IMG/VR virus record: IMGVR_UViG_3300029878_000190
Location: 1 to 5,408 of that record
Strand: one strand, 5' to 3'
DNA from: a virus
Taxonomy: Duplodnaviria > Heunggongvirae > Uroviricota > Caudoviricetes
DNA: 5,408 bases
Part shown: piece after piece, positions 1 through 5,408 of the stretch
Numbering within the stretch: the stretch's first letter is position 1
Layout of the letters: each line of letters starts with the position of its first letter
Notes under the pieces: model-generated
Database searches by the model: none
Seen by the model: only the letters and a program-made list of their open reading frames with translations
What the model was told of the DNA's origin: nothing
Program-made: the position numbers and the translations under genes

Positions 1-2
1 CT

Positions 3-662
3 GATAGAAACAGAAGCCACTGGAGCACCTCAAAAACACCATCATACACTAAATCAGTAAGTTGGCAGCATCACCCGGAATTTGATGAGAGCGGGAAAAG
101 CGAACCAACGGACTTATTTACCTGGTACGGTAAAGATAAAAAAGGCGACTCTCTCGCTATTGTAATTAAAAATAAAAACGGAAATGATTACTTATCTCTC
201 GGTTACTACGATCAGGACGACTACCACATTCAAAGAGGAATTCGTATTAATGGTGATAGTCTCACCCAATATTGTAGTGAAAACGCCAGGAGTGCTTCAG
301 CGTGGTTTGAAAGCAGTAAAGCTATCATGGCAGAATCATTTGCAACAGGTTCCGATCATCAGGTTATAAACGAGCTCAACGGGGAAAGACTGAGAGAACC
401 TAACGAAGTTTTTAAACGTTTAGGTCGAGCAATAAGATATAATTTTCAAGTGGACGATGCAAAATTTAGACGCGACAATGTAAAAGAAACAATTTCTAAT
501 TTATTCGCTAACAAAGTTGACGTTGACCATCCTGAAAATAAATACAAAGACTTTAAGGATCTCGAAGATAACGTTGAAAAAAGACTTCAAAATCGCCAGG
601 CGAAATATCAAAATGAAATTAATCAACTATCTGCGCCAGGTGTTAATTTTGATGATATTTAA
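3..662 (+). CDS. Uncharacterized protein, 3' portion (5'-partial; gene begins upstream of the window)
   Basis: Seen in sequence: the frame containing ORF 327..662 has no stop codon from position 3 to the stop at 660-662 (about 219 codons), and has no ATG/GTG/TTG before 327, so the gene must start upstream of the window. Composition is AT-rich (about 30-37% GC on sampled 60-nt lines, versus about 55-60% in mlaA). By synteny this position upstream of mlaA corresponds to yfdF in E. coli K-12, but I do not recognise the protein sequence itself, so no symbol is given. Confidence 0.6.
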   Translation, partial: DRNRSHWSTSKTPSYTKSVSWQHHPEFDESGKSEPTDLFTWYGKDKKGDSLAIVIKNKNGNDYLSLGYYDQDDYHIQRGIRINGDSLTQYCSENARSASAWFESSKAIMAESFATGSDHQVINELNGERLREPNEVFKRLGRAIRYNFQVDDAKFRRDNVKETISNLFANKVDVDHPENKYKDFKDLEDNVEKRLQNRQAKYQNEINQLSAPGVNFDDI

Positions 663-802
663 AATTATTTTTCCAGTTTTTTGATTTTTCAACGCCTGAA
701 TATCGGAAATAGTCAGTGACGAACATCAGTATTTTTACATCATTACGTCCGGGTCATTGTCGGTTTATCTCCTTTTACTTGTGGTAATTGAGGGATAACA
801 AC

Positions 803-837
803 AAAAAAGGTGAGTTTTGCGACTCACCTTTTTTATT
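803..837. terminator. Bidirectional rho-independent terminator between the convergent upstream gene and mlaA
   Basis: Seen in sequence: perfect 7-bp stem GGTGAGT (809-815) / ACTCACC (822-828) with a 6-nt loop, flanked by AAAAAA (803-808) and TTTTTT (829-834, continuing TTTTTTATTTGTTT). This gives a U-tract on either strand. It sits 16 nt beyond the mlaA stop and about 140 nt beyond the + strand gene's stop. Confidence 0.85.
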
Positions 838-843
838 TGTTTC

Positions 844-1599
844 TTATTCAGAATCAATATCTTTTAAATCATCCTGAATCGCTTGTGCGTTCGGATTTTC
901 CTGCGGTTTGAGTTCGCCGCCATTAGCGATGAAATCATGACGCTGGAAGTACGCTTCGCGCACCATAATATAAGGATCGGACGACTGACGCAGCAGACCA
1001 TCGGAATCCAGCAGCTGAGCGCGGGTTTCGATCCCTTCAAGCGTCCATTTACCCACAGACATCGGCCAGGTCAGCCAGGAAAGAACCGGGTAAAGACCAT
1101 CCGCCATATCACCACCGTCATCACGCAGCGTGAAGCTACCGTAGAACGGTAACTGAACGTAAGGCCCATAACCCACGCCATAATGACCAAGCGTACTACC
1201 GAAGCGGTGAGGTTCAGTCCGTTGCAGTTTCGGGTTCGCCATCCCTGCAACATCAATAAAGCCGCCCATCCCCAAAATGGTGTTCAGGAAAAAGCGGGTA
1301 AAGTGGACCATCCCCTGATAAGGGTCGCCCTGCAAGAAGTAGTTAACCATCACCGCAGGTTCTTCAAGGTTGCCAGTAAAGTTGCTCAAACCATTACGCG
1401 CCGGTTGCGGAACATAATCACGCCAGGCGACAGCGACCGGTCGAACAATATACGGGTCTAATACGTTGAAGTTGAAGTTGTACATGGTGCGGTTGAACCC
1501 TTCTAACGGGTCAGAACGCCCTTGCTGATCTGTACCGGAACTCGCACACCCCACCAGAAGCGTAGTTCCCAGAGCAAGCGCCGACAGGCGAAGCTTCAT
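844..1599 (-). CDS. mlaA: MlaA/VacJ outer-membrane lipoprotein (phospholipid asymmetry maintenance)
   Basis: 251-aa ORF with ATG start at 1597-1599 and a GGAG Shine-Dalgarno upstream (minus-strand sense ...CAGGGAGACATTT-ATG). N-terminus MKLRLSALALGTTLLVGCASSG is a lipoprotein signal peptide with lipobox LVGC. Length and sequence match my recollection of E. coli MlaA (VacJ); not verified by search. Confidence 0.9.
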   Translation of the reverse strand: MKLRLSALALGTTLLVGCASSGTDQQGRSDPLEGFNRTMYNFNFNVLDPYIVRPVAVAWRDYVPQPARNGLSNFTGNLEEPAVMVNYFLQGDPYQGMVHFTRFFLNTILGMGGFIDVAGMANPKLQRTEPHRFGSTLGHYGVGYGPYVQLPFYGSFTLRDDGGDMADGLYPVLSWLTWPMSVGKWTLEGIETRAQLLDSDGLLRQSSDPYIMVREAYFQRHDFIANGGELKPQENPNAQAIQDDLKDIDSE

Positions 1600-1892
1600 A
1601 AATGTCTCCCTGTTTTTTTATGGCTTATGCAGTTTGCCATCCATGACGGAACGATACCGTATCCGCCTGTTTAGGTGTGGGCGATTGTAACAGCACGTCA
1701 ACTGATGTCCAGACGCCCTGATTTGCTGATTTGATCATAGCCTGGTAATCGCCGCCCTGTAGGCTACTTGATTCTATAGAAACAGAAAAAGGCAAACGCA
1801 GCCTTTTCTACATTTTCAGAGTAACTCCCGTCAGTTGCGAGCAAAAAAGCCGCTACGCTTTAGCTATACGTGCTAATTCAAGAGAAGAGACC

Positions 1893-2825
1893 ATGGACAA
1901 CGACAAAATTGATCAACACAGCGACGAAATTGAAGTTGAGAGCGAAGAAAAAGAGCGCGGCAAAAAAATAGAAATAGATGAAGACCGACTCCCCTCCCGG
2001 GCGATGGCAATTCATGAGCATATCCGCCAGGATGGTGAAAAAGAGCTGGAACGCGACGCAATGGCGCTACTGTGGTCAGCCATTGCGGCGGGTCTGTCGA
2101 TGGGCGCTTCGTTACTGGCAAAAGGGATATTTCATGTCGAACTGGAAGGTGTGCCGGGCAGCTTCTTGCTGGAGAATCTCGGTTATACCTTTGGTTTTAT
2201 TATCGTCATTATGGCCCGCCAGCAATTATTTACCGAAAATACCGTGACTGCGGTACTACCCGTCATGCAAAAACCGACAATGAGCAACGTCGGCTTACTT
2301 ATACGGTTATGGGGCGTCGTGCTGCTGGGTAATATTCTCGGGACAGGTATTGCGGCGTGGGCATTTGAATATATGCCTATCTTCAATGAAGAAACTCGCG
2401 ATGCATTTGTCAAAATCGGCATGGATGTGATGAAGAACACCCCCAGCGAGATGTTTGCCAACGCGATCATTTCCGGCTGGCTGATCGCCACTATGGTTTG
2501 GATGTTTCCTGCAGCGGGTGCGGCAAAGATTGTGGTGATTATATTGATGACCTGGCTTATTGCCCTGGGTGACACCACCCATATCGTGGTCGGTTCTGTT
2601 GAAATCCTCTATCTGGTGTTTAACGGTACGCTGCACTGGAGCGATTTCATCTGGCCCTTCGCACTACCTACTTTAGCGGGGAACATCTGCGGCGGCACCT
2701 TTATCTTCGCGTTAATGAGTCATGCACAGATTCGTAACGACATGAGCAATAAGCGTAAAGCAGAAGCACGCCAAAAAGCAGAACGTGCGGAAAACATTAA
2801 GAAAAATTATAAAAACCCGGCATAA
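1893..2825 (+). CDS. yfdC: Inner-membrane protein of the formate/nitrite transporter (FNT) family, YfdC-like
   Basis: 310-aa ORF, ATG at 1893, TAA at 2823-2825. Acidic, charged N-terminal tail followed by several hydrophobic helices, typical of FNT channels. Position between mlaA and argW matches K-12 yfdC. Overlapping antisense and out-of-frame ORFs in the track are treated as shadows. Confidence 0.85.
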   Translation: MDNDKIDQHSDEIEVESEEKERGKKIEIDEDRLPSRAMAIHEHIRQDGEKELERDAMALLWSAIAAGLSMGASLLAKGIFHVELEGVPGSFLLENLGYTFGFIIVIMARQQLFTENTVTAVLPVMQKPTMSNVGLLIRLWGVVLLGNILGTGIAAWAFEYMPIFNEETRDAFVKIGMDVMKNTPSEMFANAIISGWLIATMVWMFPAAGAAKIVVIILMTWLIALGDTTHIVVGSVEILYLVFNGTLHWSDFIWPFALPTLAGNICGGTFIFALMSHAQIRNDMSNKRKAEARQKAERAENIKKNYKNPA

Positions 2826-2860
2826 ATGGCGAGGGTTTAAGCAATCGAGCGGCAGCGTAC

Positions 2861-2889
2861 TTACCCCGCACTCCATTAGCGGGTATACT
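2861..2889 (+). promoter_or_regulatory. Putative sigma-70 promoter of argW
   Basis: Seen in sequence: -10 TATACT (2884-2889), 17-bp spacer, weak -35 TTACCC (2861-2866). A GC-rich discriminator (CATGCCGC) lies between the -10 and the tRNA start, as is common for stringently controlled stable-RNA promoters. The tRNA starts 11 nt after the -10. No transcription start site data. Confidence 0.45.
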
Positions 2890-2900
2890 CATGCCGCATT

Positions 2901-2975
2901 GTCCTCTTAGTTAAATGGATATAACGAGCCCCTCCTAAGGGCTAATTGCAGGTTCGATTCCTGCAGGGGACACCA
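2901..2975 (+). tRNA. argW: tRNA-Arg (anticodon CCU), with encoded CCA end
   Basis: Seen in sequence: 75-nt cloverleaf. Acceptor stem GTCCTCT / AGGGGAC (one G-U pair), anticodon loop CUCCUAA giving anticodon CCU, T-arm GCAGG-TTCGATT-CCTGC, discriminator A then CCA. Matches the E. coli argW tRNA from memory. Confidence 0.92.
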
Positions 2976-3070
2976 TTTATCAGTTCGCCTCCATCCGTAC
3001 CAGTCCGCAAAATCCCCTGAATATCAAGCCTTCCGTAGATTCACAGTTCGTCATGGTTCGCGTCAGATCG

Positions 3071-3100
3071 TTGACAGCCGCACTCCATGACGGGTAAAAA
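3071..3100 (+). promoter_or_regulatory. Putative integrase promoter
   Basis: Seen in sequence: consensus -35 TTGACA (3071-3076), 18-bp spacer, -10-like TAAAAA (3095-3100), about 37 nt upstream of the integrase ATG at 3137. The spacer sequence closely resembles the argW promoter spacer (see findings). Inference only. Confidence 0.3.
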
Positions 3101-3136
3101 GTGGATAAAATAATTTTACCCACCGGATTTTTACCC

Positions 3137-4294
3137 ATGCTCACCGTTAAGCAGATTGAAGCAGCAAAGCCGAAAGAAAAACCATACCGCCTTCTCGATG
3201 GTAATGGCCTGTACCTTTATGTCCCTGTATCAGGGAAAAAGGTATGGCAGCTTCGCTACAAGATTGACGGTAAGGAGAAAATCCTGACCGTAGGAAAATA
3301 TCCGCTAATGACTTTGCAGGAAGCAAGAGATAAAGCATGGACCGCGAGGAAAGACATCTCGGTTGGCATCGATCCGGTAAAAGCGAAAAAGGCTTCGTCT
3401 AACAACAATTCCTTTAGTGCCATTTACAAGGAATGGTACGAGCACAAGAAGCAAGTCTGGTCAGTAGGCTATGCAACTGAACTTGCCAAAATGTTTGATG
3501 ACGACATTTTACCCATCATCGGCGGTCTTGAGATTCAGGATATTGAGCCGATGCAACTGCTGGAAGTAATCCGCAGATTTGAAGATCGCGGTGCAATGGA
3601 GCGAGCAAATAAAGCCCGCAGAAGATGCGGCGAGGTTTTCCGTTACGCTATTGTCACCGGCAGGGCTAAATATAACCCGGCACCTGACCTTGCAGACGCC
3701 ATGAAAGGATACCGCAAGAAGAACTTCCCGTTTCTTCCTGCAGACCAGATCCCGGCATTCAACAAAGCACTGGCAACATTTTCAGGAAGTATCGTATCGC
3801 TCATTGCGACCAAAGTTTTACGCTACACAGCCCTAAGAACGAAAGAGCTTCGCTCCATGCAATGGAAGAACGTCGATTTTGAAAACAGGATTATCACCAT
3901 CGACGCCAGTGTGATGAAGGGCCGCAAGATTCATGTTGTTCCTATGTCAGACCAGGTGGTTGAACTTCTCACTACGCTAAGCTCAATCACTAAACCAGTA
4001 TCAGAGTTTGTTTTTGCCGGGCGCAACGATAAGAAGAAGCCAATCTGCGAGAACGCGGTATTGCTTGTGATTAAACAAATCGGCTATGAGGGTCTGGAAA
4101 GCGGTCACGGATTCAGGCATGAATTCAGCACGATTATGAACGAGCACGAATGGCCTGCTGACGCTATTGAAGTGCAACTTGCACATGCCAACGGCGGATC
4201 TGTGCGCGGGATTTACAACCATGCTCAGTATCTAGATAAGCGCAGAGAAATGATGCAATGGTGGGCGGACTGGATTGATGGGAAGGTGGAGTGA
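3137..4294 (+). CDS. intS: Prophage tyrosine recombinase/integrase (P4-type, IntS-like)
   Basis: 385 aa from ATG at 3137 to TGA at 4292-4294. The N-terminus MLTVKQIEAAKPKEKPYRLLDGNGLYLYV is the arm-binding domain typical of P4-family integrases. The C-terminus carries tyrosine recombinase catalytic residues (R in LRYTALRTKELR, H-x-x-R in HGFRHEF, catalytic Y in GIYNHAQYL). The ORF track begins at an upstream GTG (3101); I prefer ATG 3137 because it gives the 385-aa length I recall for IntS and the GTG would lie inside the proposed promoter. Confidence 0.85.
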   Translation: MLTVKQIEAAKPKEKPYRLLDGNGLYLYVPVSGKKVWQLRYKIDGKEKILTVGKYPLMTLQEARDKAWTARKDISVGIDPVKAKKASSNNNSFSAIYKEWYEHKKQVWSVGYATELAKMFDDDILPIIGGLEIQDIEPMQLLEVIRRFEDRGAMERANKARRRCGEVFRYAIVTGRAKYNPAPDLADAMKGYRKKNFPFLPADQIPAFNKALATFSGSIVSLIATKVLRYTALRTKELRSMQWKNVDFENRIITIDASVMKGRKIHVVPMSDQVVELLTTLSSITKPVSEFVFAGRNDKKKPICENAVLLVIKQIGYEGLESGHGFRHEFSTIMNEHEWPADAIEVQLAHANGGSVRGIYNHAQYLDKRREMMQWWADWIDGKVE

Positions 4295-4314
4295 TCCACC
4301 TTAACTATCGAATG

Positions 4315-4361
4315 ACACAAAGCTTTGCGATCAAGGGCAAAGCTTTGTGTGTTTTAGTTTT
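4315..4361 (+). terminator. Possible intrinsic terminator downstream of the integrase gene
   Basis: Seen in sequence: ACACAAAGCTTT (4315-4326) and AAAGCTTTGTGT (4339-4350) are reverse complements and could form a 12-bp stem with a 12-nt loop, followed by GTTTTAGTTTT (4351-4361). The stem is AU-rich, so stability is uncertain. Confidence 0.35.
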
Positions 4362-4387
4362 GTCCTGTGTGCCAGATATTGAATGGC

Positions 4388-4981
4388 CTACGCCTCCGGC
4401 TGTTCAGGCCAGATGATATCCGGCGCGGTGCTGGTATCTGTTGCCGTCACCGCGTCAATGTAATCCAGCACGGCGTTAAGTCGGGTTGTTTCTGCCTGCG
4501 TCAGCTTCCGCCCGGCCTGCAATTTCAGTTGAATCAGACTGATGGAAGCCATTGCAGCATCAATCAGCGACTGGCGCTGTGCTTCTGCCGCGTCTACTGC
4601 GGCACCGTGTTGTGCCTCAGAATCTGTCACCCATTTCTCACCATCCCATTTATCATATGGCGTTGAGGGTGCAGTGCTTGTAAACCCATTCTTTATGGGG
4701 CCAATATAATCGACCATTGATGTATCACCACTTTCAGTTGAGTAAACTGTTTCCCCGCGATAATCTTCCTGCTGCTCCCATCCAATACCAGTAAATACTG
4801 GAATCTTCCCAGCCACTTCATCACCTGGCTCAATATCAGTAGAATGGCCTGGCATGCTCACACCAACATGAATATACTCATCAGACCATCCCGTATATTC
4901 AAACGTCACCGCGTCGTAGTAATAGCATCGGATTTCACCGGCTTCTTTTGCCAGTCCATTTTCATCGAAAACAGGTTTCAT
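4388..4981 (-). CDS. Phage tail-fibre assembly protein (Tfa family chaperone)
   Basis: 197 aa, ATG at 4979-4981, TAG at 4388-4390. The C-terminal signature ...LDYIDAVTATDTSTAPDIIWPEQPEA and internal blocks (GETVYSTESGD, YDKWDGEKWVTDSEAQ) match the conserved pattern of lambdoid/Mu-type tail-fibre assembly proteins such as TfaE. Start overlaps the stop of the upstream tail-fibre gene (TAATG). AAGGG Shine-Dalgarno upstream. Confidence 0.85.
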   Translation of the reverse strand: MKPVFDENGLAKEAGEIRCYYYDAVTFEYTGWSDEYIHVGVSMPGHSTDIEPGDEVAGKIPVFTGIGWEQQEDYRGETVYSTESGDTSMVDYIGPIKNGFTSTAPSTPYDKWDGEKWVTDSEAQHGAAVDAAEAQRQSLIDAAMASISLIQLKLQAGRKLTQAETTRLNAVLDYIDAVTATDTSTAPDIIWPEQPEA

Positions 4982-5408
4982 TATTTAGCCCTTACTAAAA
5001 AGTTGAATGCAATGTTACGTGGGCGTGTTTCGGTGTCGCCTGTATCTTCAATCGCCCGAAGTTGCCCGCCGCCTGGTTGGTTAATGTTGTAAGTGAGCGT
5101 TCCATTTAAACTACTATCAATACCAATAACATTGCCGGTCCCTGCACTACCTGCGCTCATGAGCAATCGGTGCGAGTGGCTTTGATAGGTATGACCCTGA
5201 GCGCTTAACAGGCCACGGCCTGCATCAACTCCGCGCCCATCATCCCAGATACGAATAAATTCACCCCGTGATTCAGTAAGAACCAGGCCAGGGAAAACAA
5301 GCGCCAGTTTCGGGTAAGTTGTCGCTGAGAATGTCGCCCCGTTGAACTTCAGAAACACCATATCAGCCCATTCAGTCATTACCGTATTGGGCATCGCCGA
5401 GGACGGCC
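4981..5408 (-). CDS. Phage tail-fibre protein, C-terminal region with tail-collar-like motif (5'-partial; gene continues beyond the window)
   Basis: Minus-strand frame is open from the window edge (5408) to TAA at 4981-4983. The track's Met at 5392-5394 is internal, since the upstream in-frame codons read P-S-S-A with no stop. The motif RGEFIRIWDDGRGVDAGRGLLSAQGHTYQSHSH resembles the phage tail-collar domain signature as I recall it. Placement immediately upstream of a tfa gene is the usual fibre/chaperone pairing. Confidence 0.75.
   Translation of the reverse strand, partial: PSSAMPNTVMTEWADMVFLKFNGATFSATTYPKLALVFPGLVLTESRGEFIRIWDDGRGVDAGRGLLSAQGHTYQSHSHRLLMSAGSAGTGNVIGIDSSLNGTLTYNINQPGGGQLRAIEDTGDTETRPRNIAFNFLVRAK

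Follow-up and report, generated by a model that had tools for sequence, protein, structure and literature searches.

High mobility of gtrABC clusters among prophages of the P22, lambda and P2 kinds has been described (PMC2629481), and the seroconversion genes of such phages are placed near the int-att region (PMC8787464). In Escherichia coli K-12 MG1655 (L001), the order in the CPS-53/KplE1 element is argW, intS, yfdG (gtrA), yfdH (gtrB), yfdI (gtrS), yodE (minus strand), a tfaS pseudogene (plus strand), yfdK (minus strand) and a yfdL pseudogene (minus strand), with torI further along. Phage HK620 has a hairpin, a K-12-like leader and then an 'O-antigen modification protein' gene, while in Sf6 int is followed by oac and then by a convergent tailspike gene. 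In HK633, int is directly convergent with the side tail-fibre gene. The slot behind int holds gtr in P22-like prophages as well. With regard to the tail fibres, convergent tfa/tfa' pairs are a hallmark of Pin/Gin-type invertible segments.

The window, by which we mean the whole stretch of 5408 bp that was analysed, carries an IntS-type argW module next to tail-fibre genes (Table 1). Both arm-binding and catalytic domains were found in the integrase (Pfam Arm-DNA-bind_3, 2e-25; Phage_int_M; Phage_integrase, 2e-39), and the gene lies directly 3' of argW. It is named intS as annotated in relatives, and its DNA is 95-97% identical to int of HK620, Sf6, HK633, CUS-3 and Kapi1. The ATG at 3137 fits the annotated 385-aa IntS (the mechanical ORF start is a GTG at 3101), and the stop codon TGA occupies 4292-4294. 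The window is collinear with K-12 in this region, where the annotated CPS-53 begins within argW, 15 nt short of its end; on this basis the 3' end of argW carries the attL core of an IntS-type prophage. The tfa gene (Caudo_TAP E = 3e-30; minus-strand stop TAG, 4390 down to 4388) has a 3' half of the TfaS type, and the tail-fibre gene behind it codes for 245 aa in L008, a locus that is 99.8% identical. The far end of the window's own prophage lies outside the 5.4 kb. In the related argW prophage of strain CX12 (L003), which was available whole, the early region is lambdoid, the tail genes are E217/PhiTE-like, and torI, the gene for a recombination directionality factor, lies at the far end.

Table 1. 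Features of the 5408-bp window, with the evidence for each assignment
Feature	Position	Strand	Evidence
IS1 end	1-75		
yfdF, truncated	76-662		
mlaA	844-1599	-	
yfdC	1893-2825	+	
argW, tRNA-Arg(CCT)	2901-2975	+	ARAGORN; Rfam tRNA, 63 bits
intS, tyrosine integrase of the KplE1/HK620/Sf6 argW integration module	3137-4294	+	Pfam; DNA identity
intS 3' flank, conserved	4295-4364	+	blastn breaks; 13-element alignment
Terminator-like hairpin and T-run	4315-4362	+	Repeat finder; terminator scan; fold; HK620 annotation
tfa' relic (YfdK type)	4365-4416	+	Translation/alignment
tfa, tail-fibre assembly (chaperone) gene, intact, 197 aa	4388-4981	-	Pfam Caudo_TAP
Tail-fibre gene, 3' part, runs off the window end	4981-5408	-	Translations; L008 gene calls; L008 collinearity

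The left edge of the window has a history of its own. Bases 1-75 are 100% IS1 terminal sequence, matched by more than 5000 plasmid records in regions annotated as IS1A/IS1B transposase. The 5' part of yfdF has been replaced by IS1 (junction 75/76), and yfdF is intact in the closest relatives (L008 and others), which indicates that the source strain carried an IS1 insertion in yfdF.

A first, sequence-only reading of this DNA had reported a gap of 93 bp between the stop of intS (4294) and that of tfa (4388), and the ORF list and the sequence reproduce these coordinates exactly (4295-4387). The K-12 gene order that it gave, with gtrA/B/S (yfdG/H/I) between intS and tfaS, agrees with the K-12 record; one difference is that K-12 tfaS lies on the plus strand, inverted with respect to tfa of the window. 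Its observation was thus confirmed, and its interpretation was supported in part. We consider it likely that the gap represents an unfilled version of the known cargo (moron) slot of IntS-type argW prophages, situated between the integrase and the genes for tail fibres or tailspikes, and that it is marked by a deletion scar in tfa'.

The gap consists of two parts, namely 70 bp of integrase flank on the left and 23 bp of a tfa' stump on the right, which continues over the next 29 bp within tfa. In blastn comparison with K-12, positions 76-4364 are 97.5% identical, through intS and 70 bp past its stop, and positions 4363-4664 match K-12 tfaS (L001 8131-7830) at 91.4% in inverted orientation. The homology also breaks at 4363/4364 against four other argW elements, including those of CRECJHTL34 (L004), S51 (L006) and 1217KP (L007). 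At the joint, ...AGTTTTGTC|CTGTGTGCCAGAT..., the two parts overlap by at most 2 nt (TC). The K-12 gtr leader starts at the base right after the equivalent of 4364, and the earlier proposal that the gap marks the boundary of the slot holds to this extent: likeness to K-12 runs through the palindrome to 4364 and the gtr leader takes over from the next base. Whether K-12-like sequence resumes exactly at the palindromes had been named as a check; the break does fall just after the palindrome, but the likeness resumes on the opposite strand.

The right part of the gap is the remainder of a second tfa gene. From about 4365 the plus strand reads ..V P D I E W P T P P A V Q A R stop, with the stop codon TGA at 4414-4416, and this relic comprises the last ~17 codons of tfa' (..VPDIEWPTPPAVQAR, then stop; ~51 nt). 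The C-terminus ...SSAPDIEWPTPPAVQAR, followed by the stop, is common to K-12 YfdK and the tfa' of CRECJHTL34 (444 nt, 147 codons) and matches the relic. Outside the coding sequence of the live tfa, 23 of the 25 bases of 4363-4387 are identical to K-12 yfdK. The frames of the relic and of the live tfa are convergent and overlap by 29 nt (4388-4416), and positions 4363-4430 match the overlap of convergent tfa pairs, such as tfaP/tfaE of e14, in 1868 of the 5426 complete E. coli genomes on which all population counts are based. The 41-aa plus-strand ORF at 4291-4416 was considered as a gene in its own right and rejected; homologues exist for no more than its last ~15 residues, which are the Tfa C-terminus, and the hairpin falls within its 5' part. 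Annotators may treat this ORF as spurious apart from the tfa pseudogene stump.

The relic also bears on the question of whether anything was lost. If int and tfa had always abutted in these elements, K-12 and others would have gained inserts and the window would preserve the primordial arrangement. The int module of HK633, directly convergent with a side tail-fibre gene, and the stable adjacency in 30 complete genomes would suit such a history; a YfdK-type stump with 23/25 identities and a C-terminal peptide that ends in its stop codon, however, needs a convergent gene that was once complete, and we hold a primordial arrangement to be highly improbable. The sequence-only reading had allowed that K-12 and its relatives might share the int-tfa adjacency. 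K-12 lacks it, but elsewhere it is normal (HK633 and the 30 complete E. coli genomes). The adjacency of int and tail-fibre genes is a recurrent configuration, and it reflects ordinary prophage mosaicism of a kind already known.

The left part of the gap is dominated by a hairpin, a perfect 14-bp inverted repeat (4315-4328/4337-4350; pair I6 of the repeat finder) with an 8-nt loop, followed by GTTTTAGTTTTG. Its stem has 6 G-C pairs and a U-rich tract (GTTTTAGTTT) follows directly on the plus strand, which are the features of an intrinsic terminator; the hairpin was the top terminator-like site in a scan of the window, and its RNA fold has a free energy of -30.7 kcal/mol (z = -3.7). The homologous hairpin is annotated in the HK620 record as 'terminator for prophage excision transcript'. 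The hairpin is accordingly annotated here as a predicted Rho-independent terminator of the intS/excision transcript, a function that we infer for this host. It could also shield intS from antisense read-through of the late tail operon, which is uncertain because the U-tract that follows the hairpin on the minus strand is poor. Across 13 elements the arms are kept mainly as sequence, and the K-12 and 1217KP variants are mismatches with no compensatory pairs. Rfam at gathering thresholds returned tRNA only, with no known sRNA in the gap. In the gtr-bearing element of CFSAN061768 (L022 ~6480-6560, equal to window 4315-4350) a deletion between the arms has left a single arm, suggesting that the terminator is dispensable in some elements.

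Behind this hairpin, relatives differ in what they carry. After intS and the hairpin, CRECJHTL34 has pinE (minus strand), an alternative fibre tip (plus), a full tfa' (plus, 444 nt), tfaE (minus) and the fibre gene (minus). Strain 300444 (L005) has an acyltransferase gene (Pfam Acyl_transf_3), a 222-nt tfa' fragment and tfa (minus), and S51 has ~200 bp of pin-side sequence with an 81-nt tfa' fragment (a partial tfa according to PGAP). In K-12 the slot is filled by gtrABS, yodE and a 303-nt tfaS fragment, and in 1217KP by a gene for a multi-pass membrane protein of no known family. The exact 93-bp gap and junction of the window recur in FXCREC004 (L002), CX12 and the loci L008, L009, L012 and L014. 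The lengths of the tfa' partner thus form a series (444 nt in CRECJHTL34, 303 in K-12, 222 in 300444, 81 in S51 and ~51 in the window), and such variously truncated partners suggest that the silent half of an invertible tail-fibre segment has decayed or been replaced several times independently.

Of 13 aligned elements, 11, some with cargo and some empty, retain the hairpin and are alike up to AGTTTTGTC (4364) but not beyond; the exceptions are CFSAN061768, with half a hairpin, and Sf6, with none. The continuation is a gtr leader in K-12, PK5074, CFSAN061768 and C41, pin-side sequence in CRECJHTL34, S51, 1217KP and phage HK633, an acyltransferase leader in 300444, and the tfa' stump in the window, FXCREC004 and L015. 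All classes of cargo start at the same base after the terminator, except in Sf6, which is without the hairpin.

Two further observations concern the slot. The multi-pass membrane protein of 1217KP (L007 8354-9169, at the position equal to window 4364/4365) has 271 aa and matches no Pfam family, and its gene may be an uncharacterised surface-polysaccharide modification gene, because the slot usually holds oac, gtr or O-antigen modification genes. Also, a leader of ~60 bp after the hairpin (TCATCAAC.AC.GCAAGTATCGATCGATT.AGACTTGGATGATAGACTTCA) is common to the K-12 gtr cassette (L001 4777-4860) and the HK620 O-antigen modification gene (from 38297 of its record downwards), while the downstream genes differ. 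It may serve the cargo genes of the slot as a shared promoter or regulatory region.

As had been noted from the sequence, the gtr cassette is missing from the window. No ORF and no tblastn match in the window corresponded to GtrA, GtrB, GtrS, Oac, an acyltransferase or Pin, and tblastn with K-12 YfdG/H/I found nothing in the window, L002, L003, L008-L015 or L019. The possibility had been raised that gtr genes sit elsewhere in the same prophage, and neither these nor oac or pin occur anywhere in the whole prophage of the relative CX12. No gtr leader or coding remnant was found in the gap, and to judge from the sequences compared here, nothing shows that a gtr cassette was ever present at this junction. 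The earlier alternatives of a gtr-less version or a deletion derivative thus both capture something, in that the element is gtr-less and the 3' stump of tfa' does attest a deletion; there is, however, no sign that the deleted DNA was gtr. The proposed bearing on serotype stands only in the trivial sense that the slot contains no modification gene.

A single deletion from the K-12 arrangement was considered and rejected, as the tfa pair is inverted with respect to K-12. A recent loss in situ at argW, in which an ancestor of the order int-gtrABS-tfa' lost K-12-like gtrA-gtrB-gtrS together with the 5' part of tfa', nevertheless has some appeal. K-12 gtrABS begins exactly after the equivalent of window position 4364 and has a truncated tfa adjoining it, and intS-gtrA junctions of the K-12 type were found in 598/5426 genomes. 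Against this, one deletion cannot interconvert the inverted tfa pairs, and leader and coding remnants of gtr are lacking. The scar occurs with divergent flanks (75% in FXCREC004) and in a prophage at lambda att, which argues for an old, mobile scar, and its bearers among the relatives have no gtr in the prophage (the whole of it in CX12, and within the available flank at the other loci). We regard recent gtr loss at this site as very unlikely. The closest fuller architecture, that of CRECJHTL34, has pinE, an alternative fibre tip and tfa' in this position rather than gtr.

The composition of the CRECJHTL34 locus suggests what the empty slot may once have held. Its segment is flanked by Pin-type crossover sites (TTCTCCCAAACCAAGGTTTTCGAGAG), which survive in K-12 yfdL, 300444 and S51. 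A pattern search for such sites (26-bp, TTCTCCCAAACCAAGGTTTTCGAGAG-like) found none in the window, and the equivalent position in the L008 fibre gene is degenerate and maps past the window end. A homologue of the serine recombinase PinE was absent by tblastn from the window and its closest relatives, though present in the argW relative CRECJHTL34, and the window has no second fibre tip and only the ~17 codons of a second tfa. Past invertibility of the fibre of the window is read from the tfa' relic only, because the crossover site in the nearest relative is degenerate. The tail fibre is now fixed in one orientation.

We suggest the following course of events, in which the order of steps and the content of the deleted DNA are what we infer. 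An ancestral tail-fibre module would have contained a convergent tfa/tfa' pair, and the simplest full ancestor would have had an invertible segment like that of CRECJHTL34, comprising pin, the alternative tip of the fibre and tfa'. All DNA from the terminator to the last ~17 codons of tfa' would then have been lost, leaving the fibre frozen and no cargo. The gtr genes (K-12), the acyltransferase, oac and the O-antigen modification genes would represent alternative fillings of the slot, probably swapped by recombination within conserved flanks. On the left, the deletion stops at the very base that forms the universal boundary of the slot, which is not expected of a random deletion. Because it coincides with the boundary of all cargo classes, an origin of the junction by cassette exchange is favoured, and this hints that the junction was not born by simple deletion in situ.

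The distribution of these arrangements was surveyed in the complete E. coli genomes. The intS gene is present in 1853/5426. As for the intS flank/gtrA junction of the K-12 type, identity to the K-12 sequence reaches 99% or more in 425 of the 1151 records that match, and the count of 598 genomes is probably inflated by K-12 laboratory strains. The junction of the window, defined as a match over at least 80% of 4300-4430, occurs in 30/5426 genomes, whose hosts are poultry, pigs, dogs and humans. The exact junction string had no match in GTDB species-representative genomes, among which the hairpin with its T-run was found in only two, both K-12-like E. coli with gtr. The complete E. coli genome that matches best covers the right part of the window at only 88.6%. 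The closest loci (L008 and others) were obtained by exact-protein look-up with Tfa, with a 10-kb flank each; in the 99.8% identical loci, this 10 kb of prophage contains only tail genes and a YafO-type toxin gene. The toxin gene (L008 5821-6237; a similar one in L002 20990-21406) lies with a small ORF among baseplate genes, as a separate moron within the tail operon of the prophage of the closest relatives.

The same junction is found in several contexts. FXCREC004 has the junction of the window and yet only ~75% identity across 4200-5030. L015, beside ybhB-bioA at lambda att, has the hairpin and the junction without intS; with the hairpin-scar-tfa unit at lambda att in the absence of intS, the scar need not have originated at argW. 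L021, on the lambda att side, has the hairpin with gtr, and an S51-type scar is common to S51 (argW) and L013 (lambda att side). The exact Tfa protein occurs in many public contigs, in prophages at three chromosomal sites. The 197-aa Tfa was also observed at prophage ends on the dacD side (L010/L011 ~10001-10700) and on the lambda att side (L013/L015), with other tail modules (Mu-like in L011; E217-like in L010 and L013) and tfa' stumps of various lengths. The occurrence of Tfa at further sites with differing tail modules and stumps indicates that the module of chaperone and fibre tip travels freely from one prophage to another.

These shared scars fit an exchange of whole hairpin-slot-tail fibre units across sites by recombination in conserved flanks. 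The scar may accordingly have been made elsewhere, for example in a lambda att prophage, with the hairpin-stump-tfa-fibre unit imported whole by homologous recombination; crossing over would have taken place in the hairpin on the left and in tail genes on the right. L015 with its junction but no intS, the scar shared by L006 and L013, the gtr-bearing L021 and the three sites of the exact Tfa are all in keeping with import, but the argW elements could equally be donors. Import is in any case a variant of the empty-slot explanation that differs only in the place of the event, and we see it as a genuine, if somewhat doubtful, possibility. A more speculative extension, which we think unlikely, is that the ~49-bp hairpin element (4316-4364) acts as a portable boundary or docking sequence for the exchange of cargo and tail fibres across unrelated integrases and att sites. 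If true, this would explain why every cargo class and the scar of the window start at one base, at argW and lambda att alike.

Our preferred reading of the gap as an empty slot with a tfa' scar has modest practical consequences. For annotators, it means that the usual slot of this argW prophage adds neither a glucosylation nor an acetylation gene for the O-antigen. The locus is a clean example of the decay of the silent half of an invertible segment, and of cargo cassettes sharing a terminator-defined boundary. Both principles have already been described for lambdoid and P22-like phages, and the finding matters little beyond bookkeeping.

Compared with CPS-53 of K-12, the window shares the argW site, the integrase module, the hairpin after int and a truncated silent tfa beside a live one. 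The K-12 slot differs in holding gtrA/B/S and yodE, and its tfa relic measures 303 nt as opposed to ~51 nt. The K-12 tfa pair is in the opposite inversion state; in the window the live tfa is of the TfaS type and the stump of the YfdK type, whereas in K-12 the roles are reversed. CPS-53 is, moreover, a 10-kb remnant, while the closest relatives of the window hold full sets of myovirus tail genes. The likeness to the Din family (the P segment of e14 and the G segment of Mu) lies in the convergent, overlapping tfa genes, although in the window the overlap is with a stump. In the argW relative CRECJHTL34, pinE, both tips of the fibre and two crossover sites persist, whereas the window lacks the recombinase, the second tip and a crossover site, and its invertible system is extinct.

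HK620, Sf6 and HK633 share with the window the IntS-type int/attP module at argW, and HK620 also the hairpin. In each of these phages, int is followed by a gene that faces or precedes the one for a receptor-binding protein, and in HK633 int faces the side tail-fibre gene as it faces tfa in the window. HK620 and Sf6 are P22-like podoviruses with tailspikes and a filled slot (an O-antigen modification gene and oac, respectively), while the prophage of the window, as seen through its relatives, has E217/PhiTE-like contractile-tail genes and a tfa chaperone. With the gtrABC and oac morons, the window has in common the logic of slot and boundary, a terminator and then the cargo leader and genes, and it represents the unoccupied allele of that slot.
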